64,000 nucleotides of DNA from Patescibacteria group bacterium (lineage in GTDB: Bacteria; Patescibacteriota; UBA1384; CAJBMM01). Position numbers and translations under genes: made by a program. The stretch covers positions 149,520-213,519 of the forward strand of contig JBAZWC010000002.1 in NCBI GenBank assembly GCA_041660565.1, in the 5' to 3' direction. Below, piece after piece: positions 36,281-63,201 of this stretch; positions within the stretch are counted from its first letter, which is position 1; each line of letters starts with the position of its first letter. Below the pieces are notes generated by a model. It ran no database searches and was not told the DNA's origin. It was given only the letters and a program-made list of their open reading frames with translations.

Positions 36281-36630
36281 CAGCCTTTCGTGATATTATT
36301 CTCCGCGTTTTTGTGGTTGTATTTAGCTAAAATCTCGGTTTTAACCTGATTAAATGCACTTTCGATATCCACATCTAGCTGATTAGCCAACCGGCACGTC
36401 GCAAAAAACAGATCACCGATACCGTCTACAAATATCTCTTTATTTTCTTGCACAAATTTGATGCGCTCCGGCTCAGACTTGTATCGCAAATGCTGTGACA
36501 TTTCAATCAACTCTTCATGCAAGTGATCAAATTTATCGACGTTGGGCACGTCTTTCCAGCCGTTTCGTTCGGCAAAAAACCGCAGCAACTCCTGCGCCTC
36601 TTTCAAGGTGGAAATTCGCTTATCTTTCAT
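36280..36630 (-). CDS. MazG-like nucleotide pyrophosphohydrolase, paralog of 28675..29061.
   Basis: 116 aa. 'HLHEELIEMSQHL' and 'VDGIGDLFFATCRLA' paired acidic helices. Its start overlaps the NUDIX stop, so the two are translationally coupled. Confidence 0.6.
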   Translation of the reverse strand: MKDKRISTLKEAQELLRFFAERNGWKDVPNVDKFDHLHEELIEMSQHLRYKSEPERIKFVQENKEIFVDGIGDLFFATCRLANQLDVDIESAFNQVKTEILAKYNHKNAENNITKG

Positions 36631-36644
36631 TTATACTCCAACAT

Positions 36645-37972: not shown

Positions 37973-38017
37973 AAGTTAATAATATCATAATATGAAATTA
38001 TTGAAGCGGTGGTGAAA

Positions 38018-38593: not shown

Positions 38594-38615
38594 AGCGTAA
38601 TGTTAGCACATTTTG

Positions 38616-39191
38616 CTAGATAACTTGTAGGACGTCTGTTAGTTGTTTGATCCGGATGATGTTTTTGTGATCTGAAACGCCATGGTTCCACGGCCTGTCA
38701 AACAGCAACACCCTCACCCCGGAATTGGCGCATTTCTCTGCCCATTCCGGCGAATCGTCAATTATCAGATCAACTTTTTCACGTAAACAAACATCGTTTT
38801 TCTCTCCTCGTGCGTTACCGTCATTAGAAAAATGATGGGTCAAAATAATCTTAGAGAATCGTTGTGGAAAATGGCTGTCTAACCAGCTTGTAGTCTCAGC
38901 GGTTAACTGTGTTGGACGGGAAGTGATAACAATTAATTCGTGATCTTTTGATAATTTTTCCACCACGTCGACCGCTTTGTTCTGAGGTTGCAATGACTTA
39001 AGACTGCCCGATTGGTAAAACTTAAATACCTTATCGACTATCTCTGCGTGAGGGCGCTTGAACAACGGCTGTAAATCGTATTCAAGAACGTCTGATAATA
39101 CAAAACTCGTGCCGTCGTTTTCGTTGCAGTAGCGCAAAAACTCAGACACAAAGTCGGTTAGCACATCATCAAAATCAAAAGCAATTTTCAT
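38616..39191 (-). CDS. HAD-superfamily 5'(3')-deoxyribonucleotidase-like phosphatase.
   Basis: 191 aa. 'MKIAFDFDDVL' is the HAD motif I (DxD) at the N-terminus; length and architecture are NT5C-like. Confidence 0.5.
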   Translation of the reverse strand: MKIAFDFDDVLTDFVSEFLRYCNENDGTSFVLSDVLEYDLQPLFKRPHAEIVDKVFKFYQSGSLKSLQPQNKAVDVVEKLSKDHELIVITSRPTQLTAETTSWLDSHFPQRFSKIILTHHFSNDGNARGEKNDVCLREKVDLIIDDSPEWAEKCANSGVRVLLFDRPWNHGVSDHKNIIRIKQLTDVLQVI

Positions 39192-39209
39192 AAAGCCATA
39201 TTAGCACAT

Positions 39210-39785
39210 TTAGGAAACGCCGGCCTCATCTTCCGAGTTAATCTGATGAAAATACTTCATTACGGATTCTCCAATAATGTCTAGGTCCGTCAATAATTCT
39301 TCGCGATCATCTTTTGGATCAATAATTCCTTTTGCCTGCGATGGAGATAAAATATAGTAAATCGGCATATCCATAGATGTATTGGCGCTATAAACTTCAA
39401 TAAGCCACGGGAATTTCTTGTGTACAGTTCGCCTATAAACTACTTCGATGATATCCTTTAATAATTGTTTATCGTCGCAAGCAAACCAAATTACTGGTAA
39501 TTCCTCGCCGTGACCCTCACAAGATTCTACGGTTATAAGACCGTTGTTTGTCAACACCTGACAAATTCTTTTCATTGGTTCGTCTGTGATTGGTAAGTTC
39601 AGTTCAATATCTCTGTACCGCTGAACTGATTTCTCGGTTTCCGCTCTGTATTGCGCAATTCCCTCCGGGGACCATCTTTCATCACATATTCGACTAACAA
39701 TTAAGTCAGCACTAATTCTTGGCTTTACGCCTGATTGACCAACCTCGGATTCGCCTGAGATATATTCATTCATTTGTGACTCCAA
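39210..39785 (-). CDS. Hypothetical protein, flanked by 33-bp direct repeats.
   Basis: 191-aa ORF, no motif recognised. Identical 33-bp sequences at 39183-39215 and 39793-39825 bracket it. Confidence 0.3.
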   Translation of the reverse strand: MESQMNEYISGESEVGQSGVKPRISADLIVSRICDERWSPEGIAQYRAETEKSVQRYRDIELNLPITDEPMKRICQVLTNNGLITVESCEGHGEELPVIWFACDDKQLLKDIIEVVYRRTVHKKFPWLIEVYSANTSMDMPIYYILSPSQAKGIIDPKDDREELLTDLDIIGESVMKYFHQINSEDEAGVS

Positions 39786-39828
39786 ATGATTTAATTTTCA
39801 TAAAGCCATATTAGCACATTTAGGATTG

Positions 39829-39866
39829 TTAGGGGATTTGGGGGGATTGGGGGCTTTTGGGAAGTG
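39829..39866. repeat. G-rich half-element of the same family.
   Basis: 'aggggatttggggggattgggggcttttgggaagtg' between the 33-bp direct repeat and tRNA-Ser(CGA). Confidence 0.55.
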
Positions 39867-39906
39867 ACAATTCCATCCTCCATCTTCTATTTTCCATCCT
39901 CTGATA

Positions 39907-39996
39907 TGGCGGAGACGAGAGGATTTGAACCTCTGAAGGGCTTGCACCCTTACCGCGTTTCGAATGCGGCGCAATCAACCACTATGCGACGTCTCC
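39907..39996 (-). tRNA. tRNA-Ser (anticodon CGA as read), type II.
   Basis: The reverse complement reads GGAGACGTCGCATAGTGGTTGATTGCG... anticodon loop TTCGAAA ... long variable arm ... GGTTCAAATCCTCTCGTCTCCGCCA, with G73 discriminator. One mismatch in the anticodon stem. Confidence 0.7.
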
Positions 39997-48645: not shown

Positions 48646-48656
48646 CGGGGGACATG

Positions 48657-48692
48657 ACGGGTGTGGTGCAAGATGCACCGCACCCGTTTTCA
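48657..48692 (+). terminator. Rho-independent terminator candidate.
   Basis: GC-rich imperfect hairpin 'gggtgtggtgcaagatgcaccgcaccc' followed by 'gttttcatt'. Confidence 0.5.
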
Positions 48693-49110: not shown

Positions 49111-52100
49111 CTAGAACCCTAGGTGAACTCTATCTGTCGTTTTATCAAACCATCCCGGGCCAATTTTGGCTGGACGGGTGGTTAGGTTGCCGTAGAGCGA
49201 TGTCGAAATTGTCTCAAACAAATTTAGGTCGTTGGTATCGTACGTGCCAATTTGATTTGGTTTAAGGTTGGTATTGCGGGTGCGATCTTTCATTAACAAT
49301 AACGAACCAATTACGCGCCGTACTTCGTATTGCGCCCCCGCTTTGATCCCTTTGCGATACGAATCGTTGCTGGTGCCGCTAAACTGGTTGGGTAGTTTAA
49401 GTTGTGAATCCAAGCTGGAGCTGGCGGTGATGTTAGCCGTTTCGGTAGTCTGACTGTTTAGAGCAGTTTTGAGTGCGGCTAACGAAGCGTTAGCTTGATT
49501 GGCGTCGGCTGATCCCGAAAGCGGGTAGTAGTCGATGGCGCAGGTAACGGTGGTTTTTCCCCAGATAAAGTTGAAGAAGATAAATAATCCTAAGCTAATT
49601 GGATCGGGATGAATTAGATATTGGATTAGGTAAATTAGCGTGCCGGATTGCAATCCCAGCACTGATTCAACTTGTCCAATTTGTTTTTGGAAGATCACGT
49701 TGGCTACCGCGGCAATAATCATCGATGTCTGGGTTTTAAACTGACGCGAGGCAGAGTTCATGTTACTGCTGGCGTTATCTAACGCTTCGTTAAACGCTTC
49801 GGTGCCCATGGTGCTGGCGTCTGACAGGCTTTGCATCGCTTGCATAGAGGCGTTTTGATAGGTGGCCAGGGCAGTTTGGTATTGGGTGATGCCTTGGTAG
49901 ATGGTCATTGTGGTGCCGGATTGCATCCCTAGCGTTTTATCGGCCCAGTTAAAAGCGGCACCTTGCCACGATGTCCACAAGTTGGCTTGCAATTTGGCAG
50001 TGTCGCCACTGAATGCGTATCCAACCAGCGCTGAGCCGGTGCCCGGGGCCAGATCGATGTTGAATACTTTGTTGGTTAGTCGATCAAAGCTGGTGCCCAG
50101 TTTATCGATGCCGGTGCGGCCGCCGGCGTCTCTGGCGGTTAGTTGAGTCTCGAGCCAAGCGTCATCACCGGAATGTGAAGTAACGTAGTCGGTTAAAATC
50201 CCCAGCGTGTCGGCCGGAATGCCCATATCTTTAAGAATTGGGATGTTGTTTACCGCGTAAGACACCATAAAGTCTTTGGCGTAGCGCCAGCGGGCGGCGT
50301 CGCCGGTTAGGCTGATCGTTTTGCCGGTGATATCAACGTAGGTGTATTGCCCGCCAATTAATGCTTTGGCGAATCCGGGCTGAATGAATTTGGCGACATC
50401 ATCAGGCAACAGTTTGCGCGCCTGATAATCCATATATTTGTACGATAGATTTTGGCGGGCGTTGTTCATAAACTGACGGTTTAGAGATTCTACATCGGAC
50501 ATATAAAGTAAGGCAATGTCGCCACCGGCGGCCGCTAGCTCAGGGTGAGCGGTTGCTAGTTGGGCGTTGATGTAATCTTGCTGTGCAATCGGATCGCCGA
50601 TAATCGAATTACGGATGTCGGCGTAGGTAATGCCAGCCTCTTTCATATCAGCGGTGTTAGCCATCATGGCGGCGCCGATGTAGGTCATGCCAATGGTAAA
50701 GTGACCATTAAATAGGTTTGCCGCATCCACGCTGGTAAACCCGTTAACGTTGACTATCTTAGCCGCTTCTTCGCTTAGAGCGTTAGTGTAGTTCCCTCGA
50801 AACATCATCTGGAGCGAAACGGTGCTAATGCCGGTGATTTGCGATAGTTTGAGAGCGCCTTGATAAATTAGAGTCCGTTTAAGCTCGGTAACGTTGTTCA
50901 TATTGGCCAGCAAGTGCGAAAAAGTACCCCTGTCCCAACCGACTTGCGCGTCAACATAAGTGCCACCAAAGCCGCCGACTAAATCTTGAAACGCTTTCAT
51001 ATTCTCACCGTTGGCCAACGCGCTGATTACGTCTTTGCCGAGAATCGAATATTTATCCGGAATACCTAAAATGCTAGCCAGCTCACCCGCAATGCCATCG
51101 GTAACGGCTTTCTTGCTGGTGGCTTGAACATAATCATCGGGTGATATGCCGCCTTGCATCATCTTCAAGGTCGAACCGCTTTCAATGCCTAACGATTGGT
51201 CGATAATATCAAATCGTTTTAGGGTGACATCAGAGAAATGACCTTCCGCGCCAACGCTTGGGCCGATGGTAGAGGTTAGATAATTGTAAACAATTTGGTC
51301 GCGCTGAGATTTCATCGCATTGGTGCTGTACGAAAAACTGACTGCGTTTAGTTGCGCTTGTACCGTGCTAGGTAAAATGATGCCGTACGCGCTGGCAAAC
51401 GATTCCGCACCGGTTTTCTTAGCCACATCTAGCACGGTATTACCGTAAAATGAACTTGCGCCGAAACCAAGTGCTTGTTCGATGGTTGACTGCCCGATGG
51501 CGGATTGTACACCGGCAATCGAATTGGCGTGGGATAGATCGATGGTGTTAAGGTGAAAGACCGAGGCGACTACGTTAGTACCTAAAGCATACAGGCTGAT
51601 GTTATCTGTTCCGGTTAGCAGAGAGGTTGCCAATGCACCCACCGGCAGACCGTGATTTTTTTCGGTGATGCGCTGGCCAATACGATTTAGGACGTTATAG
51701 TACGAACCATCAATCAAATCGTAGAAATCTTGTCCGCTTAAACGATAACCGGCTACTTTGACATCAAACTGCGACGCTAAAACCGATCCGGCATTATAAC
51801 GCAATTGAGCATTGCCAATGCGTTTTTTATAATCCGCAAAGGTGATTTTGCCGTCAAATAAATCTTTAGTCGAGCCGTAGTCGATGTGGTAATAATCATC
51901 GGTTGAGCCAAGTTGAGGCGCGATTGAGGTGAGATATCCACTGTCTTTGTTCACGATTTTAGTGTAATCAACGGACTGTAATCTGAATATTTGTTGCGCT
52001 TGTGATTGGGTTAGCGCCGATTGCCAGTTGTCACTATTTAGACTACCGGTCAATAATCCGGCAATGTTCTCTAAAGCGGATTGTCCCACGCCACCAACTC

Positions 52101-54912
52101 CGCTGTTACCGTTGGCGCCAAGTAAGTTGGCGGCAAACGAAAGGGCGGTTGGAGGCAGGTTAAGGGCGGTTGAAACCTTCATCGCGCCATATTGCAAAGC
52201 GATACTGTTTAAGGCGGTCGGGTTGTTGAGTAGCGAATAAACCAGATTCGGCGTAATTTCGGAAGGATTCGAGGCTTTAGTGGCAAGGGCGGTGTACTTG
52301 ATGGTGACGGTGTTGCTACCCAGGTTGTTGTATTGGTTGCTGGGTAGAGTAACGGTGGTGCCATCGGCGCTGACACTGTAGCTGGACGGCGAAAGCGGTG
52401 CCCCTTCGCGATCGGTAACTGTAACAGACGAAACTTTAACCGCTTTGTTTGATAGATGGTAGGTCAAAGCACTGGCGTCGCTGACCGGGAACGACTCAAT
52501 GGTTTCGCTGGTTGACGGCCGAGATCTGTCGTATTGATACAACAGATTAGCTAGGTTTTGATCGCCGATTGCTTTGGTAGCAATATTGCTGAAAGTGTAG
52601 TTCATTTGGCTTTCCGCAACTTGACGAATGGTGTTTTGGCGCTGGGTGGCCGCGGTCTGGTAGTTTTTTGATGATGAAGTTGGTGCCAAAAATGATCCGA
52701 CAACACTCAAAAACTGGTTTGGTGATAGATTTGAGGTTAGACTGGCGTTGGCGGCGGAAAAATTAAACGTCCGTTTGCCGTTAATGGCATCAAACACCAT
52801 TCCGGTATTTGATAGCACCGCATTATCTTTGTAGCTCTGGCTGAAGATTTTATCTGAGCTCATTTGCAGCGACTTGGCCACGGCATCAACCCCCAATGCT
52901 ACCCAGTAATTCTTATTGCCTTTAATCAGCTCGGATAAAAATTGATTTTGCGGATATTTGTGCAGAGTGGCGCTAGGTGGCACCGGGGTGGTTCCGCCGA
53001 AAATACTAGACTCAATACGCACGTTTGTGCCGTCAGACGTGGTGTAATAACTCGGTTGATCCATCGGTAGATCATAGGCGGTGGTGGTGCTTTGATATGC
53101 GCCGTATTGGTTTAATATTGACCCGTATCCCAACGCCGCTTCGTAATCGGGCAGGCTTAAATCACCCACTACAAAACGGTACGTCATATCGTTGCGGTCG
53201 GTATTTTTAATCTGGTCGATGTACGAAATGTAACCATCACTGAAAACCGATTTATTCTCGGTGTTAGACATATCCGGGAAAAGCTGTTGATCAAAATTAC
53301 TTAAGTTAGCTTTATATTTTTGGCCCTGGGCGCTGTTCCAAAACGAACTGTTTTTATTGGTCAAATCGCCTACCGACACGCTCGTTGGGATATTCAAGGC
53401 GCCTTTGATTAAACTGCTGGCGTAGCTAGAACTGGAACCGGTTAGACCTAATTTTCCGGTAATATTGTTGATGATGGTATTGATGGCCGAATTGGCTGAA
53501 TTAGACACATCGCCCGCACCGGTGGGTAGGTGATAATAGGTTTCCAGCTTTGCTTGCCCGATGGATAGTAATACGTTTTGCGGGCTATCTAGACTACCGC
53601 GCAGGCTTTGATTTTGCAGCCCCAAGCTTTTTTCTAGATAGCGCTGGCCGGCATTGGTCATTACTTCTTCTACAGAATTACCGTTTAAACTGCCAGCGGA
53701 CAAGTTCAGATTTTTTTCCACTGATCTGAGTAAACTGTTAGAAAGTAACGTTTCGACGTTGTTTTGGCTGGTGTTAAGTGGATTAGCGGTAGTGTCGGAA
53801 GCGTTGATGTAAGGATTAAAGACGGCCGAGTTAGGTAAATCCATTAGGTCGGCTAATGCAGCATAACCAAGAGTGCGATAATCGAGTGCGGCGGTGTTAG
53901 GATCAAACGTAGATGGTTTAATGCCCATTTGATTTGCCAACAAGTTATATCCCATCATGGTAAATGCGCCTTTTAAGGCTTGAGCTTGAAAAGTGCCATC
54001 AGACGATTCAAATCCGGCCAAAAACTGGTCTAGCCCGGCAGTGGTAGACATTGAGTCATAGGTGTTGCCGAACGGTGTTTGCACATTGGCTACGCCAGCG
54101 TCGGTTTGCCACGCCACTTTGACCGGCCGCGGCGCTTGCCGAGTGATTTTAGCACCAATCCCCATTACTCCACCCGATTTAGTGGTGCACATCACCAAGC
54201 CAGCCGCGGTAATGTCCGCCGCCTGGCCTTTTTTATGCACCGTAGACACGCCGTTGGGTTCAGTCTGCGCAGAGGTGTTTACGCTCGCGGCTTCGGTAAG
54301 CGGGGCGATGACCCCTGAGATCGACTTGTAAATCTTGATGGCGGCCGAGCTGTTAGATGGGCTAGCGCTAGCACTTGGTTGTGAGCTGGGCGCGGTTTTA
54401 AGTAACGGATAACCCGGGTTGTTTGGATCGGCTGTCTCGCCGTCAAATATTACCGGATAAGCGGTGCCAATTGAATCCGGTGAGTTCTCTTCGGCGCAAC
54501 TTTTACCAAAAGTCACATAAAGGTAAGTCATACCGGCGCCGCCATTGCTTACCGGAGTAACCAAGTAGTTTAGTGATTGCAGTACGCGCTGATCAATTTG
54601 ACCCGATCGTACCAGCTGTTGATCGCACTGAGACATCCCAATTTTGGGTAAGGTCTGATTGTTGTTGCTAAAGTTGGGGCGACGCGACTGCATATCCGAT
54701 AAATTGCTGTAAATATTGGCAATGTAGTTTGCGGATAAACTAGGAGTAAAATCTTGGGTGATATCATCTTCCCCATCTCCGGTGTCTATCTCGCCCGAGG
54801 TTACAATAGTATCACCAATACCACCCTCGGCACGCGCCTGGCCAAGTTGAGCCAACGCAATTGATGGCACCATAGTCAAACAAATTAAAATATAGGTTAT
54901 GACTTTTTGCAT
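49111..54912 (-). CDS. Giant secreted or surface protein (1933 aa), terminal gene of the T4SS-like operon.
   Basis: Uninterrupted 5.8-kb ORF. Signal peptide 'MQKVITYILICLTMVPSIALA/QLG'. S/T/N/G/A/Q-rich, largely hydrophilic, with one hydrophobic segment near the C-terminus (ISLGLFIFFNFIWG). Its start overlaps the stop of the upstream hydrolase gene. Confidence 0.6.
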   Translation of the reverse strand: MQKVITYILICLTMVPSIALAQLGQARAEGGIGDTIVTSGEIDTGDGEDDITQDFTPSLSANYIANIYSNLSDMQSRRPNFSNNNQTLPKIGMSQCDQQLVRSGQIDQRVLQSLNYLVTPVSNGGAGMTYLYVTFGKSCAEENSPDSIGTAYPVIFDGETADPNNPGYPLLKTAPSSQPSASASPSNSSAAIKIYKSISGVIAPLTEAASVNTSAQTEPNGVSTVHKKGQAADITAAGLVMCTTKSGGVMGIGAKITRQAPRPVKVAWQTDAGVANVQTPFGNTYDSMSTTAGLDQFLAGFESSDGTFQAQALKGAFTMMGYNLLANQMGIKPSTFDPNTAALDYRTLGYAALADLMDLPNSAVFNPYINASDTTANPLNTSQNNVETLLSNSLLRSVEKNLNLSAGSLNGNSVEEVMTNAGQRYLEKSLGLQNQSLRGSLDSPQNVLLSIGQAKLETYYHLPTGAGDVSNSANSAINTIINNITGKLGLTGSSSSYASSLIKGALNIPTSVSVGDLTNKNSSFWNSAQGQKYKANLSNFDQQLFPDMSNTENKSVFSDGYISYIDQIKNTDRNDMTYRFVVGDLSLPDYEAALGYGSILNQYGAYQSTTTAYDLPMDQPSYYTTSDGTNVRIESSIFGGTTPVPPSATLHKYPQNQFLSELIKGNKNYWVALGVDAVAKSLQMSSDKIFSQSYKDNAVLSNTGMVFDAINGKRTFNFSAANASLTSNLSPNQFLSVVGSFLAPTSSSKNYQTAATQRQNTIRQVAESQMNYTFSNIATKAIGDQNLANLLYQYDRSRPSTSETIESFPVSDASALTYHLSNKAVKVSSVTVTDREGAPLSPSSYSVSADGTTVTLPSNQYNNLGSNTVTIKYTALATKASNPSEITPNLVYSLLNNPTALNSIALQYGAMKVSTALNLPPTALSFAANLLGANGNSGVGGVGQSALENIAGLLTGSLNSDNWQSALTQSQAQQIFRLQSVDYTKIVNKDSGYLTSIAPQLGSTDDYYHIDYGSTKDLFDGKITFADYKKRIGNAQLRYNAGSVLASQFDVKVAGYRLSGQDFYDLIDGSYYNVLNRIGQRITEKNHGLPVGALATSLLTGTDNISLYALGTNVVASVFHLNTIDLSHANSIAGVQSAIGQSTIEQALGFGASSFYGNTVLDVAKKTGAESFASAYGIILPSTVQAQLNAVSFSYSTNAMKSQRDQIVYNYLTSTIGPSVGAEGHFSDVTLKRFDIIDQSLGIESGSTLKMMQGGISPDDYVQATSKKAVTDGIAGELASILGIPDKYSILGKDVISALANGENMKAFQDLVGGFGGTYVDAQVGWDRGTFSHLLANMNNVTELKRTLIYQGALKLSQITGISTVSLQMMFRGNYTNALSEEAAKIVNVNGFTSVDAANLFNGHFTIGMTYIGAAMMANTADMKEAGITYADIRNSIIGDPIAQQDYINAQLATAHPELAAAGGDIALLYMSDVESLNRQFMNNARQNLSYKYMDYQARKLLPDDVAKFIQPGFAKALIGGQYTYVDITGKTISLTGDAARWRYAKDFMVSYAVNNIPILKDMGIPADTLGILTDYVTSHSGDDAWLETQLTARDAGGRTGIDKLGTSFDRLTNKVFNIDLAPGTGSALVGYAFSGDTAKLQANLWTSWQGAAFNWADKTLGMQSGTTMTIYQGITQYQTALATYQNASMQAMQSLSDASTMGTEAFNEALDNASSNMNSASRQFKTQTSMIIAAVANVIFQKQIGQVESVLGLQSGTLIYLIQYLIHPDPISLGLFIFFNFIWGKTTVTCAIDYYPLSGSADANQANASLAALKTALNSQTTETANITASSSLDSQLKLPNQFSGTSNDSYRKGIKAGAQYEVRRVIGSLLLMKDRTRNTNLKPNQIGTYDTNDLNLFETISTSLYGNLTTRPAKIGPGWFDKTTDRVHLGF

Positions 54913-56261
54913 GATGCTACCTTTAATCTGGCAATAGTGTCGAGTATTTTGCTGTAACTTTTTGAGACTGTGGGATTGTGGCTACCGATTGAAGCGGCAG
55001 CGATCTGGCCATTGCCGATGTAAAAACCGACATGCCCGTATCCTCCGCCTACTTTCTTACCGTGCGAGTCGTATCTGATGGGGCTTTTGCCAGATCGGTA
55101 AAGTAAATCACCCTGGGCAAATTGTGAGTAAAAATCGGACCCGGACTTTGAGAAATCAACCTTAATTACTTCATAGCACGCTGTTTGTTGTTTGACGTAT
55201 AAATACTGATCGTAAGCGACACCAGTGAGGTTATCGTCAGCGTCGGTCTCGTGCATCACGCGAATGGCAAATGAGTTACAAGCGGTTTTATCACTAACAT
55301 CGCAAGTTGCGTATTTTTTAATTCCTTCCGGATCCGAGGCGTAATATCGAGCCAACTTAGCGATTTTTTGTCCGATTTCACTGGCTGGCACGCCACCGTA
55401 TCCCCAAATGTTTAGTTGATTAATATCATCCATCATTGCGATCAACGATTTTTTATCCACATCTGTGTCGTTGCTGGAGTAGGTAGCTAGTCGAGTGGAT
55501 AGATCGGTTAGCTTGTCTAGCGCAGCTTGATCTGGTTTTGGCCGTCCGGTTGGGGGATTGTTGGTGGCGGCACTTTGGGCGCTTTTGATTACATCGAGAA
55601 TGATTTGTTTACTGGCCGCGTCTAACTGACGGCGCGAGATTATATCCCCGGCATTCATTAAGGTGATGGTTTTTTCAGACGAGGCACTGGCTTGTTTAGG
55701 ACTACTGCCACCGTTTATTGAGACGGCGATAGCAATTGCGATCGCAATAATTATTAGTATAACCAGAAAAATAATCGCTGATACCGGATTTGCAAATAGC
55801 GCCATCGCCCCTCGCGCCACTCCTTGCCCGACTAACTTAACTCCCTGAGCTACGACTTTTGTTGCTTCAGTAGCGGCTTTTCCCGCTACTTTACCCACTT
55901 GCCCGGCGGCTTTACCGGTTTGGCTGGCTACTCTGGTGGTCTGCTCGGCCGCTTTACTGGCTTGGCTGGCAACTTTGGCTGATGCTTCAGTTGTTTTACC
56001 AACTTTGCCTACCGAGGAAGCCTCTGCCGTACTTTCCGGGCTATGCAAAAATCGATTAAAAATTGACTGACGCGGATTTACATCGTCATTAATGCCTTTA
56101 CTGGGAGTGCCGGTTGGGTTGCGGTTAATTGGTTTAAGGCCGGCTTGCTGGGCTTGGTCGTACCGGGTTTTCTGATCATCAGCATCGACAGCGCCAACCT
56201 CGCCCGTTGGTATTTCGGGAGTAACTTCATCGTCTACTATGTCAAAGTTTGGGTCTGGCAT
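54897..56261 (-). CDS. Bitopic membrane protein with C-terminal CHAP/NlpC-P60-like peptidoglycan hydrolase domain (PrgK/CwlT-like).
   Basis: 454 aa. Hydrophilic N-terminal region, central TM (VSAIIFLVILIIIAIAIAIAV). The C-terminal domain has conserved Cys ('ATCDVSDKTACNS') and 'GHVGFYIGNGQ' His motifs typical of CHAP/NlpC-P60. Confidence 0.45.
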   Translation of the reverse strand: MPDPNFDIVDDEVTPEIPTGEVGAVDADDQKTRYDQAQQAGLKPINRNPTGTPSKGINDDVNPRQSIFNRFLHSPESTAEASSVGKVGKTTEASAKVASQASKAAEQTTRVASQTGKAAGQVGKVAGKAATEATKVVAQGVKLVGQGVARGAMALFANPVSAIIFLVILIIIAIAIAIAVSINGGSSPKQASASSEKTITLMNAGDIISRRQLDAASKQIILDVIKSAQSAATNNPPTGRPKPDQAALDKLTDLSTRLATYSSNDTDVDKKSLIAMMDDINQLNIWGYGGVPASEIGQKIAKLARYYASDPEGIKKYATCDVSDKTACNSFAIRVMHETDADDNLTGVAYDQYLYVKQQTACYEVIKVDFSKSGSDFYSQFAQGDLLYRSGKSPIRYDSHGKKVGGGYGHVGFYIGNGQIAAASIGSHNPTVSKSYSKILDTIARLKVASCKKS

Positions 56262-56264
56262 ATT

Positions 56265-57518
56265 TTACTCGTAGGTTGGGGTGGTTAAGCTAATCGACAT
56301 TAATTGATTGCCAACAGTAAACATCACCCGATCGTCGTTTGGAATAGTAATCAAATTGTCGGGAGAAAAATCAATTCCGCTTGGCTTAGTGTATTGATAA
56401 TCTGTAACCGTGCCGTCAAGCGTCACATTGACCAGTTTTTGTCCGGTTGCGCTTGAAGTAACGGCAATGATCGATTTGCTACTATTCACCCAGGCAATTT
56501 TGGATACGCCGGATAGTTCTACGTTCAATGGTATAACACCACTGCCGTCAGATTTGGCCACCCACAGCAAGTTAGATGTTCCCCCGCTGGAAGTAGTGCC
56601 CGGAGCAACGTAAGCGACGTACTGGCCGTTTGGACTCCATTTTGCCCCTTCAACATCGCCCTCGGTGGTTAGACGGGTCATTTTTTGGGCAAAAATATCG
56701 TAAACATACAAATAGTTGGTTTTGGTCTGGGTGCTGTTTGATTTAAGGAAGATCTGCTGCCCGTCCGGTGACCAGGTAATAGTGGGGTGATCGATGTTGT
56801 CGATGGTCAAATTGTAAACGCGACGCAAGTTAGCGTTTTGGACATCGGACAAGATTAAAGTTTGCTCGCCATTGGTGCCGTAATAGGTGTATGCTGCTTG
56901 AATGGAGCTTGGCGACCACGCAAAATCATCAATATTGGTGCCCCATAAAGTGAGAGTTTGATTTAGTAAATCGTGGCGGGCAAAATCATATAAATACACC
57001 CCGTCTGCCTTTTTCATTAGCGCTACCGCTCCGTCCGGGCGCATTTGCACTTTGGAAATATCGGTGAGGCTGTCTGGAGTAAGCGCTACTACGTTAACGG
57101 CGGTCTGGCCGGTGACGGTTTGAGTGCGGTATAGGGTGTGCCCCAAATTTCCGACAAAATAGACGTCGCTTTTATCTAGCAACTTAGGCGAATTGGTGAC
57201 CGACGCGCTAAGCACTACCGGTGTGGGGATGTTTTTCATTAGCACGGGTAGCACCAGCTTTTGAGCGCGGGTTAAGGTGATTTTTTTCTGATAGGTTACG
57301 TATCCGTCGGCGGTTAGTTTGACCAAATGATCGCCAACCGTGGTAGTGATGGAATGGCTGTGAATAACGGCGTTATCAAAAGTGATCTCGGCGTTGTCCG
57401 GGCTAGATTGAATGATCAGCTTGGGTGAACTTAAGACAAAAGTGTACAACAAAAGCGCTCCGGCCAAAACGGCCAGCGTGGCGATAATTCCGATTAATAA
57501 GGCTTTATGTGCTTTCAT
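56265..57518 (-). CDS. Membrane-anchored TolB-like (PD40) beta-propeller protein.
   Basis: 417 aa. N-terminal TM. Repeated 'WSPDGQQIFL', 'WSPNGQYVAYVAP' and 'WSPSSIQAAY' PD40-type blades. Confidence 0.5.
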   Translation of the reverse strand: MKAHKALLIGIIATLAVLAGALLLYTFVLSSPKLIIQSSPDNAEITFDNAVIHSHSITTTVGDHLVKLTADGYVTYQKKITLTRAQKLVLPVLMKNIPTPVVLSASVTNSPKLLDKSDVYFVGNLGHTLYRTQTVTGQTAVNVVALTPDSLTDISKVQMRPDGAVALMKKADGVYLYDFARHDLLNQTLTLWGTNIDDFAWSPSSIQAAYTYYGTNGEQTLILSDVQNANLRRVYNLTIDNIDHPTITWSPDGQQIFLKSNSTQTKTNYLYVYDIFAQKMTRLTTEGDVEGAKWSPNGQYVAYVAPGTTSSGGTSNLLWVAKSDGSGVIPLNVELSGVSKIAWVNSSKSIIAVTSSATGQKLVNVTLDGTVTDYQYTKPSGIDFSPDNLITIPNDDRVMFTVGNQLMSISLTTPTYE

Positions 57519-57525
57519 TCATCTC

Positions 57526-58269
57526 CTACGACCCCGACAATGATGGTAAGGGAGACGCAAAATTATCTCGGGTGCAACCATTCCCTACATATATTGTAGC
57601 ACCAGAAACGTTTAAGTCACCTAGGTCGCCATTGGTTGAATTAATATAGCTTGAGTCGCTGGTGGCGATGTCAAAGTGAAATGGATTGTTACCAAATTCA
57701 CTAAATGCTCCGGTATCTACTATCCGAAACTCAATTCCTTTGCCGTTTAATTTTGCGGCAACACCGGCTTTTTTCTCTAAATCCGGAATATATGCCTTGG
57801 TACCGTATTTGTAAGTATTAGTGCTACCCTTTAATGTCTCCAGGTTGGCGGCCAAGCCTGCGTAATTGCCCTCCTTGGCACTTGAATATTTGCCATTAAG
57901 ATAATCTTCAAGTTTGTGTACTACTACGCCGCGAGCATCATTTACCCCTCCTTCAATGCCGCCTTTGCCAGGAACATAGGTGGTTGCCTCTTTTAGCGTG
58001 ACGGCGTTGCAATCCGGGCCAACGTTGACTGTTCCGCCGGCGACAGTTGAATTGCCGGTTGGTTTATTCCACGTGCCGCTGGGGTTGTAAAAAACAGCAA
58101 AGATCACGCCAAACATGATCAACGGGATAGCAATGGCGGCCACGCCTAAAATAATCATCAGAATTTTGCGTCCGGATTTCTTTGGTGCAGGTTGTTGATT
58201 TTCAGTCTCGTCAGGCATATAAACATCCAAACAATTTTTAATTTTTAATTTTAAATGAAAGGTAGCCAA
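57526..58269 (-). CDS. Membrane-anchored protein with possible 3D/DPBB (lytic) domain.
   Basis: 247 aa. TM (ILMIILGVAAIAIPLIMFGVIFAV). C-terminal 'FRIVDTGAFSEFGNNPFHFDIATSD' resembles the Asp-rich 3D domain of MltA/YuiC-type hydrolases. Weak call. Confidence 0.3.
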   Translation of the reverse strand: MATFHLKLKIKNCLDVYMPDETENQQPAPKKSGRKILMIILGVAAIAIPLIMFGVIFAVFYNPSGTWNKPTGNSTVAGGTVNVGPDCNAVTLKEATTYVPGKGGIEGGVNDARGVVVHKLEDYLNGKYSSAKEGNYAGLAANLETLKGSTNTYKYGTKAYIPDLEKKAGVAAKLNGKGIEFRIVDTGAFSEFGNNPFHFDIATSDSSYINSTNGDLGDLNVSGATIYVGNGCTRDNFASPLPSLSGS

Positions 58270-58355
58270 TTTTTAAATGACTAAATAAGGAACCATTTTT
58301 AAAATTTAATCATTCGGTACTTATTCATTTAAAATTTAGCCTTTAAAATTTAAAA

Positions 58356-60149
58356 TTATTCTTGTACTTTCTGTTGATCCATAATTTCTTGTGGGTTGGT
58401 GGTGATAATTTGGTGCTCGTTATAACTGGCGATAATCTTAATGGCCACGTGTTCTTGACCGGCAAAGAACAGCCCTTCACCAATGTCTGATTCTAATAGC
58501 AGCATTTTCTCACCGTCGGTTAAGCCAAATATTTGACTGATTTTTTCGATTGATGAGGTGGATTGTTTGAGCAAAATCTGTAATGACGAGTTGGAAACCA
58601 CCGCCTTACCATATTGCCCTTGCAAAAAATCCTCAACGTCTTGGCTGATAATGGTTAATCCTAAGAAATATTTACGCGATCGCTTGGCTAATCCGTACAA
58701 AAATCGCGCCGAATCTTCGTATTGCATCATGGTCCACGCTTCATCCACCACCATAATACGCTTCTTAAAGTTAAGTCTAATTTGAGTCCAAATGTAGTTC
58801 AAAATCACATACATTGCTACCGGTCGTAACTGCTCTTCCAAATCGCGAATGGAAAACACCACAAAGCCCTCACCCAAAGCAAAGTTGGTTGGTTGATTAA
58901 ACAGGCCGGCATAGGTGCCCTCAGTATATTTGGAGAGGCGCTTGGTTAGCGAATCTGTGCCCGAAAGGTTGGCCAGCACCGAGACTAAATCGGACATTAC
59001 CGGCGGCTCGTTAGTTTGAGTTTTTGGATCAACGGTAATATCTTTGATGGCGTAGGTTTCATACAGCGCTTTGTCCAAAATCGAATCTTCCTCGGGAGTT
59101 AAGCCGCCAGTCATCAGTGAAATTAGACCGTGTAAATCGGTGATAGTCGAACGTAAAACATCGTCACCGGTTTGATCGTTGTCGGCGTGCGGTAAATCAA
59201 ACGGGTTAATGCGTTTTTCGGAATTCAGGCTAACCTCAAGATAACTGCCTCCTACTGCATCACACAGTGCTTTGTACTCGTTTTCCGGATCAACAATAAT
59301 GATGTCGGTGCCTAGCATTAGGCTGCGCAGCACCTCTAACTTGACCACGTATGATTTTCCGGCGCCCGCCTTGGCAAAGACCACCGAGTTGGCGTTTTCC
59401 AACTTAAACCGATCAAATAAAATTAACGAATTATTGTGACGGTTAACGCCATACAAAATGCCTTCGTTGCTGGTCAGTGTGGCGGTGGTAAAGGGGAAGG
59501 TGGTGGAAAGCGAACCGGTGTCTAGGTTGCGGGTGATGTTTAGTTGATCGTTGTGCAAGGGCAGTGAGGCGTTAAAACCCTGCTCCATCTGATAAAGCGC
59601 CTGTTTGGTGTAAATTAACATTCCGCCAAGCACCGATTCCAGCTGTCTGGTGATGGTTTTCAAATCTTCGCGTGATTTAGCGTAAATAGTGAAATATAAC
59701 GCGTAGTGAAATAGGCGAGATTCGCCTTTTTGTAACACATCGCGCAACTCTTCGATATCACCCACCGCTGTTTCTAATTCGGGATCTCGCACCATCCCTT
59801 TTTCCTGTTTGATGGTGACGGACGATGAAAGTTGCCCCAACTCTTTTTTAAGATCGGTCATTACATCTTTGGTATCAAGCGGATAAATGAACATCGAAAT
59901 GTCCATTGGGATATCGTAGTCAATGATGTTAGCCAGCCAGTTAGTCTCCAAATAACGCGGGTAAGTGTAGGTGAACAGGGTTTTGACAAACTGTTCGCCC
60001 AGTTGAATATCGTTTGGCGACACTACAAAAACCGACGGCGCAATAATATCTAGCACGCTCGCCATGCCCTCGGTAAAGACTTGCTGGGCATTGTTTTGAG
60101 CCGCAACTGCTTGCTTGTCTAGTTTAATTGGGTTTGGCGTGTCGGTCAT
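58356..60149 (-). CDS. VirB4/TraC/ConE-family type IV secretion ATPase, C-terminal (ATPase) part.
   Basis: 597 aa. Walker A 'AKAGAGKSY', 'IIVDPENEY', Walker B 'MVVDEAWT'. Its ATG overlaps the stop of the upstream ORF as ATGA. Confidence 0.75.
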   Translation of the reverse strand: MTDTPNPIKLDKQAVAAQNNAQQVFTEGMASVLDIIAPSVFVVSPNDIQLGEQFVKTLFTYTYPRYLETNWLANIIDYDIPMDISMFIYPLDTKDVMTDLKKELGQLSSSVTIKQEKGMVRDPELETAVGDIEELRDVLQKGESRLFHYALYFTIYAKSREDLKTITRQLESVLGGMLIYTKQALYQMEQGFNASLPLHNDQLNITRNLDTGSLSTTFPFTTATLTSNEGILYGVNRHNNSLILFDRFKLENANSVVFAKAGAGKSYVVKLEVLRSLMLGTDIIIVDPENEYKALCDAVGGSYLEVSLNSEKRINPFDLPHADNDQTGDDVLRSTITDLHGLISLMTGGLTPEEDSILDKALYETYAIKDITVDPKTQTNEPPVMSDLVSVLANLSGTDSLTKRLSKYTEGTYAGLFNQPTNFALGEGFVVFSIRDLEEQLRPVAMYVILNYIWTQIRLNFKKRIMVVDEAWTMMQYEDSARFLYGLAKRSRKYFLGLTIISQDVEDFLQGQYGKAVVSNSSLQILLKQSTSSIEKISQIFGLTDGEKMLLLESDIGEGLFFAGQEHVAIKIIASYNEHQIITTNPQEIMDQQKVQE

Positions 60150-60835
60150 GTTGTCTTGTTTTCAGTTGATATTATATTTTCGGTTAACTCGGTTGGTTGC
60201 TCAACACGCTCAGATGCGGCAATGTCAAAGTTATAAGTGTTATAAAGCGATCGAATGATACCATCGGAGTCTAAAACAGTAGTCTTCAATCCAAAAGATG
60301 CCAAGCCGCTGGCAACCACGTTGGCTCGCTGCATCAACTCTTCGCGATGAATGTTAAATTGTGATTCGCTAATTTTTAAGTAAGATGGCGCTTTGCTCTT
60401 AAACAATCCGGCAAAAAGTGATTTGCTGTCCTGCACCACCGGCGAATACGAAATCACCACAAAAAATTTTTTATCCATAATGTTAGCCACCGTAATTAGC
60501 TCGCGCACATAGGCGACGTAATCGGTAGTCTGAGTTTTAATCAGCTCATTTTTCTGCCCCACGGTAGTAGATTCAAGCTGTTTTAAGTACGGCTCCAAAT
60601 CTAACGAACGTGATTGCATTACAATCTGAATTGAGTAATTAAGAGAGTTCAAAAAGTTTTGATAGGCCATTATGAGGGCGTTTTGTTCTTGCTCAGATTT
60701 CAACATAAAGTTGGTTGAGCCAACAGAAATTATGGCACGATAAGATCCATCGTGCATAATTACTACCCCGTTTTCAACTCCAACCAGAGGAAGGTGAGAC
60801 TGGGTGCTGGCCGGTTTGGCAGTTTTTTCTGCCAT
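60146..60835 (-). CDS. VirB4-family ATPase, N-terminal domain as a separate ORF (split VirB4).
   Basis: 229 aa. 'LPLVGVENGVVIMHDGSYRAIISVGSTNFMLKSEQEQNALIMAYQNFLNSL' matches the N-terminal domain of Gram-positive-type VirB4 (Tn916 Orf16/ConE-like). The stop overlaps the next ORF's start, and combined length is 826 aa. Confidence 0.6.
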   Translation of the reverse strand: MAEKTAKPASTQSHLPLVGVENGVVIMHDGSYRAIISVGSTNFMLKSEQEQNALIMAYQNFLNSLNYSIQIVMQSRSLDLEPYLKQLESTTVGQKNELIKTQTTDYVAYVRELITVANIMDKKFFVVISYSPVVQDSKSLFAGLFKSKAPSYLKISESQFNIHREELMQRANVVASGLASFGLKTTVLDSDGIIRSLYNTYNFDIAASERVEQPTELTENIISTENKTT

Positions 60836-60991
60836 TACAAAACCCCTCCTGATTTAAGGATAACACAATTATTTAATCTTTGTAATTTTCCTTTTAATCG
60901 TGTCGAGGGCGGTCAAAATAAAAAAGCACTAAGCACTAAATTCTAAATCCGAAATAAATTCAAATTGTAAATTGTAAATTTCAAATTCGGT

Positions 60992-62440
60992 CTATATCGG
61001 CACGTATTCCGTGACCCAGGTGATAATCAGCGCTACCATTTGTATAATCGCTTTTTGAATATACTTAGCCATTAATTTTAGCGCATTACCGATAGTGTTA
61101 TTGAGAGCCGTATTAACTGCGTCAGAATTTATTGTATTCCCCTGTGATGTAAATAAACCTTTTTTTGTATCAATTTGGCATCCCCCGGTAGCTTGTGTCA
61201 TAGCAATTGTGCCGAAATCTAAATCCGCAGTTGTAGTGGTGCTTTCTTGGGCTGATGTAATGGTTAAGCTTTTCTTTCCTTCGAAATTATCACTCCCAAC
61301 GGCTTTGCAGGCGTAAAGAAACACGGTTTGTCCTTGCGGAACATAATTTAATTGTATCGCTTCAGTACCGGACCCTGGCCAGGAAATGGTAGCGTTATTA
61401 TCCTCGCCTTCTAATTGAGGTTGGGATGGGACATCGACATGAAAGGTGACTCGTCCATCAGCGATGTCAGGGATACTGGCTTTGATGTTAAACTTTGCCA
61501 AATGACCACTAAGAAACTGATATCCTGGCGAATTATCACCGTTTATTCCATAGTCGCCCATCCAAACGAGTGGGGTATCGCCAGATAGCGCAGTCCATAT
61601 CCCACCAAATGAAGGAAGTGTTGCGTAAATATTCCAGTAATTCGGGCCAGCGGCTGCAACACATCCCGAACTTGAACAAAACGCATAAGCGTCACGTCTA
61701 ACTGGGCTCCCTCCTGACACTGCATTTCCTAATGCGGTGTAACTTGTGATGTGTACAACGCCAATGAATGCATAAGCGGTGTCTGCTTTTGAATATCGGT
61801 AAAGTGTTTTATAGGTGCGTGGGTCAAGAAAATATGGGTCAAGATCTTGATAACCACTATCTGACGCGTGGATTAGTATCAAGTGGGATGCGTCAATAAC
61901 ATCAGTCGAATGGTTGTTGATGTAGTTTGATAAATCAGATTGATATGGGTCGCTTAGATTGCTGGTTTTCTGGGTTGCCTGACCATTAGAGTCAAGAAAA
62001 TACAAACCATACTTAATTGAAGTTGGCGTTGTAGTCGACAGTATTATTCCGATATTAGTATTGGATAATTGGTAAATCGGCCCCGAGAAAGTACCCCCAC
62101 TATTATTGTCAGCAGGGATACTCGATGTTTTACCAGTATTTTGAAATTGTGCGGTCGATTCGGTAACATTACCATTAACCGTTGAAAGATATCTGTCTGT
62201 GATTGTGTTTTGCCCGTTGCTGTAATAAAAGTAATGGCTGAAAACATTAGTGCCAGATGGGGTTGGAATATTTGGCGTGTCGGCGCGGGCGGAGAGCTGA
62301 TAAATTGTGTATCCAACCACAGCCAAGATCACCAAAACCACGCCCACATTGACGTAGTCAATCGAGCGCTTTGTTAGCCATTTTCTTAAAACTTTTTGGC
62401 GCATTATCTTTAGCTTAAGACAAAGCGTCATTAGTTGCAA
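60992..62440 (-). CDS. Secreted/bitopic hypothetical protein, first gene of the T4SS-like operon.
   Basis: 482-aa ORF. N-terminal TM (VGVVLVILAVVGYTIY), S/T/N/G/Y-rich body, C-terminal hydrophobic helix (IIQMVALIITWV). The probable start is an internal Met (MRQKV...). Confidence 0.35.
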   Translation of the reverse strand: MQLMTLCLKLKIMRQKVLRKWLTKRSIDYVNVGVVLVILAVVGYTIYQLSARADTPNIPTPSGTNVFSHYFYYSNGQNTITDRYLSTVNGNVTESTAQFQNTGKTSSIPADNNSGGTFSGPIYQLSNTNIGIILSTTTPTSIKYGLYFLDSNGQATQKTSNLSDPYQSDLSNYINNHSTDVIDASHLILIHASDSGYQDLDPYFLDPRTYKTLYRYSKADTAYAFIGVVHITSYTALGNAVSGGSPVRRDAYAFCSSSGCVAAAGPNYWNIYATLPSFGGIWTALSGDTPLVWMGDYGINGDNSPGYQFLSGHLAKFNIKASIPDIADGRVTFHVDVPSQPQLEGEDNNATISWPGSGTEAIQLNYVPQGQTVFLYACKAVGSDNFEGKKSLTITSAQESTTTTADLDFGTIAMTQATGGCQIDTKKGLFTSQGNTINSDAVNTALNNTIGNALKLMAKYIQKAIIQMVALIITWVTEYVPI

Positions 62441-62501
62441 TAAAATGCGAAGACCGCCGTATGGAAACGTCCACGCGGCGGTCTATTAGGCGGATGATAC
62501 T

Positions 62502-63041
62502 TCATGATTGTTCGTATCGCCGATCGACGACCTTGTTTGTCGCTGGATCAACGATTATATACAGCACCTCAAGCACGGTGTGCGGGTCAGCGGTGCGATA
62601 TACGTCATATGGTACCCACACAAGCCCGCCGACCACCTTGGAGTCCTGGGTTCTCGAGCGCCCACTGAACTTATCCAGTCCGAACTTGGATGTGCCGCCG
62701 GTCAGGAAATCGGATGGGCTGAGCAATGCAAGCGACTTAGCGAACTCGGACGACATGTACTGAGTCGCGGCGTCGAAGGCAGCGGTGTCGGCGTCGCCCC
62801 ACCTGACGTTGTTCATCATCGTGATGGCGGCTTGAATTGCTGGGAAGTACTGGCTGTTCGATCCGACCGGCTGGTCGAAAACGACTTGATTGGTCGTTGA
62901 TGGTGCAGTTGTCGTGCGTGGCATGAACATTACTGCTAGCACAAGCAACACCGCACCGATGCTGATCCCGCCGGCGGCTTGAAAGACCACGGGCGGAATG
63001 CGGGAGCTGCTGACGCTCCCATGAGGATGTGCGACGGACAT
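62502..63041 (-). CDS. Hypothetical membrane-anchored protein on a GC-rich island.
   Basis: 179-aa ORF. TM (ISIGAVLLVLAVMFM). GC-rich DNA bounded by AT-rich flanks. Confidence 0.3.
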   Translation of the reverse strand: MSVAHPHGSVSSSRIPPVVFQAAGGISIGAVLLVLAVMFMPRTTTAPSTTNQVVFDQPVGSNSQYFPAIQAAITMMNNVRWGDADTAAFDAATQYMSSEFAKSLALLSPSDFLTGGTSKFGLDKFSGRSRTQDSKVVGGLVWVPYDVYRTADPHTVLEVLYIIVDPATNKVVDRRYEQS

Positions 63042-63201
63042 TGTAGTTTCTCCTACCCACGCGAAGTGGGTCTGGTATGGGCGGTTAAGCCCGAAGTTGT
63101 GAATGGGGCACGTAGTGAAGCCCCTCGATTGATATATTAACTATACACTATTACGCTTGATTTGTCAATCACGCACATAGTATGATGAGCGTGAGAATAG
63201 C

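Follow-up and report, generated by a model that had tools for sequence, protein, structure and literature searches.

A dnaA-proximal type IV secretion-like operon ending in the gene for a giant protein in a Patescibacteria genome

An operon resembling type IV secretion systems (T4SS) and ending in the gene for a giant protein of 1933 aa was analysed in the genome of a Patescibacteria group bacterium. The operon is located on the minus strand in a stretch of 64,000 nucleotides, here called the window, which covers positions 149,520 to 213,519 of contig JBAZWC010000002.1 (assembly GCA_041660565.1). Its genes correspond to WC773_03630-03665 of the metagenome-assembled genome (MAG) listed at NCBI as 'Patescibacteria group bacterium', in which the contig measures 374 kb. 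Seven minus-strand open reading frames (ORFs) between 49111 and 62440 had been described in a first-pass annotation, and every one of them was found where it had been placed. An eighth gene, WC773_03665 (62502..63041, minus strand), specifies a bitopic protein of 179 aa with a transmembrane segment at about residues 15-46 and is possibly the first gene of the operon. In the 160-nt gap 5' of this gene lies the best promoter candidate of the region (63140..63168, minus strand; TTGACA-17-TATAGT, 11 of 12 positions of a sigma-70-like consensus), identified by a consensus scan only. The 179-aa gene is followed by an ORF of 482 aa (60992..62440, WC773_03660; the NCBI start at 62404 gives 470 aa), the product of which consists of an N-terminal transmembrane segment, an exterior part of about 410 aa rich in S, T, N, G and Y, and a C-terminal hydrophobic tail. 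Both proteins are orphans. All eight genes are intact, and catalytic as well as family-invariant residues are kept.

The remaining genes are arranged, in transcription order, as a TrsD/TraC-like gene, virB4, a gene for a membrane-anchored protein of 247 aa, a gene for a membrane-anchored beta-propeller, a hydrolase gene, and the gene for the giant protein (49111..54912, WC773_03630). When the operon is followed upstream from this last gene, the giant gene is seen to begin 16 nt before the hydrolase gene ends, an overlap that had already been noticed; the hydrolase and propeller genes are separated by 3 nt, and the propeller and 247-aa genes by 7 nt. ORF spacing gives a gap of 86 nt before VirB4, an overlap of 4 nt between TrsD and virB4, and a gap of 156 nt before TrsD.

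The VirB4-type ATPase (597 aa, 58356..60149, minus strand) had been recognized by its Walker motifs, and both are present, GAGKS at residue 262 (59352-59366) and DEAW at residue 469 (58734-58745). The assignment survived profile searches. The protein passed the curated cut-off of the NCBIfam model conju_CD1110 (1e-108, 364.6 bits versus 325) and matched P-loop_TraG of Pfam (6.5e-29); CD1110, Mbov_0397, and TraC are among the NCBIfam families matched. The model for CedB, an archaeal DNA-import ATPase, gave a weak match (8e-14), far below its cut-off and the conjugative VirB4 families. The preceding ORF of 229 aa (60146..60835, minus strand) equals the N-terminal domain of VirB4 as a gene of its own. 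It matched TrsD with 9.1e-7, which is below the curated cut-off, and VirB4_plasma with 9e-10 (positions 106-228), and its precomputed annotation is PF26593, TraC-like. Together, the two ORFs tile the conju_CD1110 model, the 229-aa protein covering positions 11-137 and the ATPase positions 178-734. Because each matches complementary positions of the VirB4 model, they were considered a split VirB4/TrsD pair; the separate ORFs for an N-domain and an ATPase proposed in the first-pass annotation are thus the known TrsD/VirB4 pair. In one related locus, L014, both parts are fused in a single ORF of 893 aa (9128-11809). Judged from these profiles, the ATPase can be assigned to the monoderm, MPF-FATA-like type. 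The matches bear out the Gram-positive ancestry that had been suggested and support the view that a T4SS-like operon of MPF-FATA descent is present in a genome of the candidate phyla radiation.

A scan for VirB4, using one genome per species, yielded 80 loci (designated by L numbers), almost all of them in MAGs of Patescibacteria. The closest relatives of the VirB4 protein, showing 79-82% identity, are labelled Berkelbacteria or Saccharibacteria, and the locus is a version of the clade to which these labelled MAGs are nearest. In every locus with a VirB4 identity of at least 60% and enough flanking sequence, the operon order was identical (L002-L006, L008, L009, L011-L014): TrsD, VirB4, an N-terminally anchored protein, a PEGA-propeller, a bitopic hydrolase, and a giant homologue of 1,450-2,060 aa. 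The giant is encoded by the terminal gene of the VirB4 operon in 14 of the 14 related loci carrying it. Three of these loci, L082, L084, and L085, in which the flanks are long enough, specify giants that are 23-43% identical to that of the window (23-24% for the more distant L084 and L085), and there, too, the operon is built in the same order and converges on genes for DciA, recF, dnaN, and dnaA. Because these distant members keep both the operon and its position, the giant is regarded as an old and fixed part of the operon. In L082, an inserted gene of the 23S_rRNA_IVP family (8171-8566) separates the hydrolase gene from that of the propeller.

The propeller protein (417 aa, 56265..57518, minus strand) contains an N-terminal transmembrane segment, a PEGA domain (1.4e-7), and matches to PD40, DPPIV_N, and TolB, which confirmed the membrane-anchored PD40/TolB-like beta-propeller described before. 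A PEGA-propeller is present in the operon of all relatives examined. Accordingly, the earlier statement that the propeller and the giant are non-standard parts applies in comparison to classical T4SS and fails within the Patescibacterial operon, in which both are conserved across lineages.

The genes on either side of the propeller gene can be described as two slots for wall hydrolases. Slot A, following virB4, is occupied by the 247-aa protein (57526..58269, minus strand; 230 aa from the NCBI start at 58218). Its membrane anchor was confirmed, but the 3D-domain-like C-terminus attributed to it was not, since neither Pfam at E<=0.1 nor sequence searches of the PDB gave a match. Slot B, preceding the giant gene, is occupied by the 454-aa protein (54897..56261, minus strand), a bitopic protein (transmembrane segment at residues 148-188) with a C-terminal domain resembling NlpC/P60 cysteine peptidases. 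Of its earlier description as a bitopic CHAP/NlpC-P60-like hydrolase, the topology held; the match to NLPC_P60 stays below threshold (E=0.089, 13.2 bits versus a cut-off of 23), although the Cys motif ACNSF (residue 327, 55269-55283) and the His motif YGHVGFY (residue 408, 55020-55040) are present.

In the relatives, slot A contains Amidase_2 in three loci, Glucosaminidase in two, and Amidase_3 in one. Slot B contains Peptidase_M23 in four loci, NlpC/P60 in two, reaching 9.4e-7 for NLPC_P60, and a C39-like papain fold in one; with the sub-threshold protein of the window, NlpC/P60-like domains in this slot are found in the window, L002, and L014. In other loci slot B carries LAS/M15-type domains with a SxHxxGxAxD motif plus HxH or MHF. 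Complete pairs of such motifs occur in membrane-anchored proteins downstream of virB4 in L003, L011, L018, L019, L024, L050, and L084. The M15 family was not reported by Pfam for the two of these seven that were scanned (L003 and L011), and the proteins may represent a diverged, T4SS-associated subfamily of LAS peptidases, as their motifs suggest. Because the slots hold interchangeable enzyme families, wall hydrolysis by a membrane-anchored enzyme appears to be the conserved feature. Slots A and B would jointly cover what two-domain VirB1-like hydrolases accomplish in Gram-positive T4SS.

The giant protein begins with a hydrophobic, signal-like segment (IALA-Q; 54829-54912) of the Sec type, consistent with the signal peptide predicted earlier, and its composition (S 10.5, A 9.8, L 9.1, T 8.5, G 8.2, N 7.3%) agrees with the richness in S, T, N, and G noted at that time. 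The family-defining N-domain (54043-54660) is followed by an immunoglobulin (Ig)-like domain at about 52258-52530 and an all-alpha region (49738-52215), both seen in AlphaFold2 models, and, defined by conservation, by a hydrophobic hairpin (49543-49731) and a C-terminal tail (49114-49395). The model of residues 1-900 has a mean pLDDT of 58, residues 410-880 being helical apart from the one Ig-like domain; residues 901-1933 (1,033 aa) were modelled as nearly all alpha-helical with a mean pLDDT of 70. Conservation peaks at the N-domain, residues 1000-1150, the hairpin, and the last 90 residues. The hairpin at about residues 1730-1790 is the best-conserved stretch, conservation being strongest at residues 1751-1800, with arms of 11-14 residues and Kyte-Doolittle values of 1.1-1.4 in the copy of the window. 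Degenerate helical repeats are suggested by a short motif of the LGLxxGSL type and a profile segment, both of which are found repeatedly along the sequence.

Word-indexed searches revealed 15 relatives of the giant, all in Patescibacteria and without Pfam domains, and a profile re-search added three proteins. When the N-terminal domain (residues 85-520) served as query in an exhaustive HMMER search, a much larger family emerged, with 248 cluster representatives at E<=1e-3, of which 103 reach E<=1e-30. Nearly all members are 1,400-3,200 aa long with the domain near the N-terminus. No Pfam match was obtained for 26 diverse members, no PDB match for the giant by sequence profile, and no PHROGs match for the copy of the window and two distant members. 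Foldseek comparisons of the giant models to the PDB revealed nothing significant, only generic helical repeats and Ig domains; in comparisons to BFVD the best E-value was 0.026 at a template modelling score of about 0.08, and the top matches were mostly phage tape-measure proteins. An identity as phage tape-measure protein was rejected in view of the missing PHROGs match, the insignificant BFVD values, and the VirB4-operon context in all related loci carrying a giant.

Throughout the family, the N-domain is marked by the signature DxR..L..YLVTP..GGAG ... (S)xHxxGQAxDI ... PIKVxWQ(T/S). In the giant of the window, HxxGQAxD is encoded at 54214-54237 and WQT at 54103-54111; H226 and D233 are nearly invariant across the family. 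The middle motif, (S)xHxxGQAxD, has the same form as the first zinc motif of LAS/M15 peptidases, but where LAS proteins show their second His motif (HxH or MHF), the giants have an invariant WQ(T/S). Pfam searches of N-domains from 11 members yielded a single hit in one of them, Extensin-like_C with E=0.24, a PDB profile search gave no match, and hhalign aligned the domain to LAS proteins over only 17 columns with a probability of 30%. With support at the level of motifs, no second His motif, and Pfam and PDB profiles blind to it, LAS/M15 identity of the N-domain is treated as a tentative lead; the domain is possibly a peptidase-derived binding module.

These features could also point to delivery of the giant as translocon or effector, extruded like a tape measure along or through the T4SS pilus, the N-domain binding or cutting host peptidoglycan and the hairpin entering the host membrane as a conduit for nutrients or nucleic acids. 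The last position in the operon, the great length and all-helical build, the conservation of the hairpin above all other segments, and a zinc-type motif identical in form to that of the LAS/M15 proteins in slot B of other loci are in line with this proposal, as are the tape-measure proteins among the non-significant BFVD matches. A precedent is known from phage T5, the Pb2 protein of which combines tape-measure, membrane-inserting, and muralytic functions. A Sec-type signal peptide, however, speaks against export of the giant by the T4SS, the structural and profile comparisons are insignificant, the second LAS motif is missing, and conserved synteny and the overlap with the hydrolase gene resemble a fixed part of a machine. 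Delivery of the giant therefore appears rather unlikely. A more specific version, in which an outward-threaded, tape-measure-like element of about 2,000 residues faces the host, docks on its peptidoglycan by a degenerate LAS-type N-domain, and forms a conduit in the host membrane by its hairpin, is given a clearly smaller chance; if it were true, the parasites would be able to extract nucleic acids or metabolites of the host through it.

Beyond the giant gene, on the opposite strand, a DciA-like gene, an ORF of 201 aa without assignment, recF, dnaN, dnaA, and then yidC were identified. A strong terminator-like hairpin with a 15-bp stem is located at 48656-48688 (plus strand), after the 201-aa gene and before the DciA-like ORF. 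From the stop of the giant gene to the 3' end of dnaA the distance is 3.8 kb, and the cumulative GC skew reaches its minimum at 42-44 kb, beside dnaA (43980). From the turn of the GC skew and the position of dnaA it follows that the operon is located 4-18 kb from the origin and transcribed towards it; the whole of it (49111-63041) lies on the lagging strand, head-on to replication. In L084 and L085, dnaA is followed by rnpA, yidC, and PilB.

The chromosomal neighbourhood bears on the possibility that the operon is part of an integrative and conjugative element (ICE) or plasmid, with relaxase, VirD4, and integrase just outside the window. The VirB4 families matched, CD1110, Mbov_0397, and TraC, are named for conjugation of ICEs or plasmids and would fit such an origin. 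Housekeeping genes were found on both sides instead, the dnaA, dnaN, recF, and yidC genes on one and, past the window end, genes for a class I aminoacyl-tRNA synthetase and TsaD on the other (on a 9.4-kb contig of the same organism), and the same chromosomal neighbours accompany giants of only about 23% identity. There is no GC discontinuity along the operon. Pfam matches to a relaxase, a coupling protein, or TrbL/VirB6 were not obtained for any ORF of at least 250 aa in the window, in agreement with the first-pass annotation, which had listed VirD4, relaxase, and VirB6 as missing, and the contig extensions contain no T4SS genes within 3.9 kb past one window end and 3.2 kb past the other. A mobile element is thus largely refuted and extremely improbable; the locus is chromosomal and lies outside any ICE.

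In the relatives, PrgI/VirB3 is encoded directly upstream of TrsD (Pfam up to 1.9e-11), also in two of the three loci converging on dnaA (L082 and L084). Where enough flank is available, a polytopic protein of 890-1,465 aa is specified upstream of PrgI, with TrbL/VirB6 matches in L011 (8.6e-8) and L004 (0.0017). In the window this place is taken by the two orphan membrane proteins of 482 and 179 aa, and tblastn searches with VirB6 and PrgI of the relatives gave no match in the window. Diverged versions of conserved components were considered for the orphans and rejected, as no homologue was detected in the 80 related loci (phmmer --max) and no match in the PDB. A VirB8-like topology of the 179-aa protein is only a guess. 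Polytopic ORFs at 3297-7060 and 14898-16379 were likewise dismissed as hidden VirB6 genes; they have no Pfam match, are unlike VirB6 of the relatives, and lie within a glycosyltransferase cluster. The lack of VirB6/VirB3 is a peculiarity of the locus in the present genome and not of the system.

Five tandem genes for VirB2-like T4SS pilins (104, 136, 98, 118, and 380 aa), which the first-pass annotation did not list, were detected at 22357-24992 on the minus strand, 24 kb from the operon. PF18895 matches with 5.5e-13 and 1.5e-5 were obtained in the array, and the motif Y-I/L-x-x-G-D-E/A-x-K-A is present in all five pilins. In the 380-aa pilin, the pilin domain is preceded by a signal peptide and a long extension at the N-terminus. 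The array is intact and probably provides the filament of the T4SS-like system. Beside it, a PilB/T2SSE-type ATPase is encoded on the plus strand (20648-22252). PilB-type ATPase genes also follow yidC near the T4SS-dnaA block in L084 (25574-27244) and L085 (25247-26896), and in L085 a T4SS pilin gene is found just past the ATPase gene. The neighbourhood of oriC, T4SS, PilB, and pilins looks ancestral and, in the window, expanded by genes inserted over about 16 kb.

If the locus were a remnant that is decaying or no longer functional, with the VirB6/VirB3 module lost and two orphans in its place, this would account for the failure of both Pfam and tblastn to find PrgI/VirB6 in the window, for the lack of homologues of the orphans, and for the contrast to the relatives that carry these genes. 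The intact state of the eight genes and of the pilin array argues for a working system, and T4SS genes are often dispersed in Patescibacteria (PMC12102498); the search for PrgI and VirB6 covered 64 kb of the 374-kb contig. Decay of the locus is therefore considered improbable.

From anatomy and conservation, the operon probably specifies a non-conjugative pilus or channel machine with the giant as a Sec-exported structural or host-contact component. The ATPase would energise assembly of a pilus or channel across the monoderm envelope, and the enzymes of the two hydrolase slots would open the wall locally, doing the job of PrgK/CwlT. The giant, exported by Sec, would be a stoichiometric structural part, either an envelope-spanning or surface scaffold or a host-contact element, held by the conserved hydrophobic hairpin and the C-terminal tail rather than released as a soluble T4SS cargo. 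The VirB3/VirB6 module may have moved elsewhere or been lost from the locus in the present genome. Such a system could serve host attachment or exchange of macromolecules in an epibiotic lifestyle, not conjugation. The first-pass annotation had proposed a host-contact or effector-delivery apparatus with the giant as its cargo or tip. The relaxase-less chromosomal setting agrees with an apparatus of this kind; the part concerning cargo is less likely because of the Sec-type signal, the coupling to the hydrolase gene, and the conservation of the family, which is unlike a variable effector.

Several observations weigh against this interpretation. Head-on transcription is not what a simple argument from gene dosage or high expression would lead one to expect. 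Without PrgI/VirB3 and VirB6 in the window, the machine may be incomplete here, and the proteins of the window in slots A and B are both below Pfam thresholds. The role of the giant is a deduction; comparisons to Pfam, PHROGs, the PDB (sequences as well as folds), and BFVD all failed to give a significant match, and residues 1-400 of the protein, including the family signature, were modelled with a pLDDT below 50. Because the arms of the hairpin are short, membrane anchoring of the giant is uncertain.

Alternatively, the system could be an uptake machine of the ComB or Ced kind, importing DNA or RNA of the host to scavenge nucleotides instead of exporting or delivering effectors, with the giant and the hydrolases breaching the host envelope. 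Neither a relaxase nor a type IV coupling protein (T4CP) was found, VirB4 gave the weak match to CedB, Patescibacteria are devoid of nucleotide synthesis, and a lifestyle of feeding on RNA, with T4SS-like tubes, has been put forward (bioRxiv 10.64898/2026.06.21.733656). The CedB score, however, is far below those of the conjugative VirB4 families, and the essentiality of the T4SS in Southlakia epibionticum is independent of ComEC-mediated DNA uptake (PMC12857230). The direction of transport is not fixed by sequence. Overall, import is unlikely, and a pilus or channel machine for host contact with the giant as a structural component remains the preferred interpretation.

Only a handful of machines have been shown to be indispensable to Patescibacteria living as epibionts, and the T4SS is one of them. 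The present analysis leaves the established view of the system as it was, but singles out specific proteins. A grammar of the operon spans lineages, consisting of a split VirB4, wall-lytic slot A, the PEGA-propeller, wall-lytic slot B, and the giant, and the approximately 250 clusters of giant proteins tied to this machine are candidates for its envelope-spanning or host-contact part.

Other parts of the window contain genes of different kinds. Two tRNA-Ser genes, tga (30764-30853) and cga (39907-39996), flank a stretch of about 9 kb (30764-39996) with genes that look accessory, among them a gene for a lipase-like alpha/beta hydrolase of 591 aa (32294-34069), a patch of 54% GC, as well as a Phd/YefM-like ORF and genes for an HNH endonuclease, NUDIX, a histidine phosphatase, a patatin, a methyltransferase, and NT5C. 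The stretch may be a small genomic island. Three successive ORFs of 191 aa each (38018-39785, minus strand) could have been an array of paralogues or pilins, but they correspond to a methyltransferase, an NT5C nucleotidase, and a protein without match, and the equal lengths are a coincidence. A large envelope-glycan cluster (297-20560) comprises four GT2 genes, GT4, two Wzy_C genes, and methyltransferase genes. It also specifies a PMT_2-like polytopic protein together with another three large, polytopic ones that have no Pfam match (3297-5147, 5147-7060, and 14898-16379).

The kind of system described here has already been published as the MPF-FATA-derived, relaxase-less, dnaA-proximal T4SS of Patescibacteria, including the separate TrsD. 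In S. epibionticum, the T4SS (SEML1_0006-0019) is located beside dnaA-dnaN-recF and is essential for epibiotic growth, a requirement known only for strain ML1 of this species; it comprises PrgI, VirB6-like genes, pilins, a PEGA protein, and wall hydrolases, and lacks relaxase and coupling protein (PMC10633639). Quinonero-Coronel et al. 2025 showed this T4SS to be widespread in Patescibacteria, related to MPF-FATA, associated with TrsD, close to dnaA, and poor in relaxases, with arrays of pilins (PMC12102498). A non-conjugative role in host interaction was proposed for these systems in both sources (PMC10633639, PMC12102498). A review from 2025 considers them unique among monoderm systems (PMC12857230), and for a cultivated member tubular structures, maybe T4SS pili, that reach the host envelope were described in a preprint from 2026 (bioRxiv 10.64898/2026.06.21.733656). 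The giant family, the propeller protein, and the exchange of hydrolases between loci slot by slot are not mentioned in the available text of these papers. From the published systems the locus differs in three respects, the giant and the PEGA-propeller, the distribution of wall-lytic activities over two slots, and the missing VirB3/VirB6.

Compared by published annotation, the closest parallel to the operon is the locus of S. epibionticum ML1 (SEML1_0004-0019; Wang et al. 2023, PMC10633639). It also adjoins dnaA-dnaN-recF, a TrsD-like gene precedes virB4, and genes for wall hydrolases and an exported PEGA-domain protein follow, namely PEGA, peptidase, and lysozyme genes, the hydrolases being a lysozyme-like protein plus a Cys peptidase, and a protein with a DD-peptidase domain (SEML1_0007, 1,114 aa, LAS/DD-peptidase; Table S2). 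A VirB2-like pilin array is present as well, and relaxase and coupling protein are missing from the locus. In ML1, unlike the window, PrgI, two VirB6-like genes, an NTF2-like gene, and the pilins are contiguous with virB4. According to the annotation table of ML1, the proteins encoded from virB4 to recF do not exceed 1,114 aa, whereas the terminal gene of the window specifies a member of a separate family with 1,933 aa, and the PEGA protein of the window, unlike that of ML1, carries a beta-propeller. With the T4SS of the Patescibacteria clade as surveyed in PMC12102498, the operon shares an MPF-FATA-like VirB4, a TrsD that is abundant and encoded next to it, a place close to dnaA/dnaN/rnpA/rpmH, arrays of pilins, rarity of relaxases, and variable, poorly detected hydrolases. 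In the synteny figure of that paper genes without profile match are grey, and a giant, a propeller, or swapping of slots is not mentioned in the part available.

Compared with conjugative T4SS of monoderm bacteria (Trs of pGO1/pSK41, CTn CD1110 of C. difficile, Prg of pCF10, and Con of ICEBs1), the operon has the CD1110 membership of VirB4 and a separate TrsD-like gene as in pGO1 in common. Its slots A and B resemble the PrgK/TraG/CwlT systems, in which membrane-anchored wall hydrolases have the same activities. In contrast to these systems, the window is without relaxase, T4CP, and oriT, and the locus is chromosomal and vertically conserved; VirB2-like pilins, absent from monoderm conjugation systems, are present, the hydrolase activities are split over two genes, and propeller and giant are additional.

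For the giant itself two comparisons are instructive. Like tape-measure proteins it is very long and nearly all alpha-helical and has a hydrophobic segment, and a muralytic motif is found in some of them; unlike these, it has no match in PHROGs and no significant one in BFVD, no phage genes are nearby, and it combines a Sec signal with a place in a VirB4 operon. Like extended VirB6 proteins, e.g. those of rickettsiae (PMC12857230), it consists of large hydrophilic domains plus a hydrophobic segment and is encoded at a T4SS locus. It differs from them by the lack of a TrbL/VirB6 profile match and by a short hairpin in place of five or more transmembrane helices, and in the relatives the giant, unlike an extended VirB6, co-occurs with genuine TrbL/VirB6-like genes.

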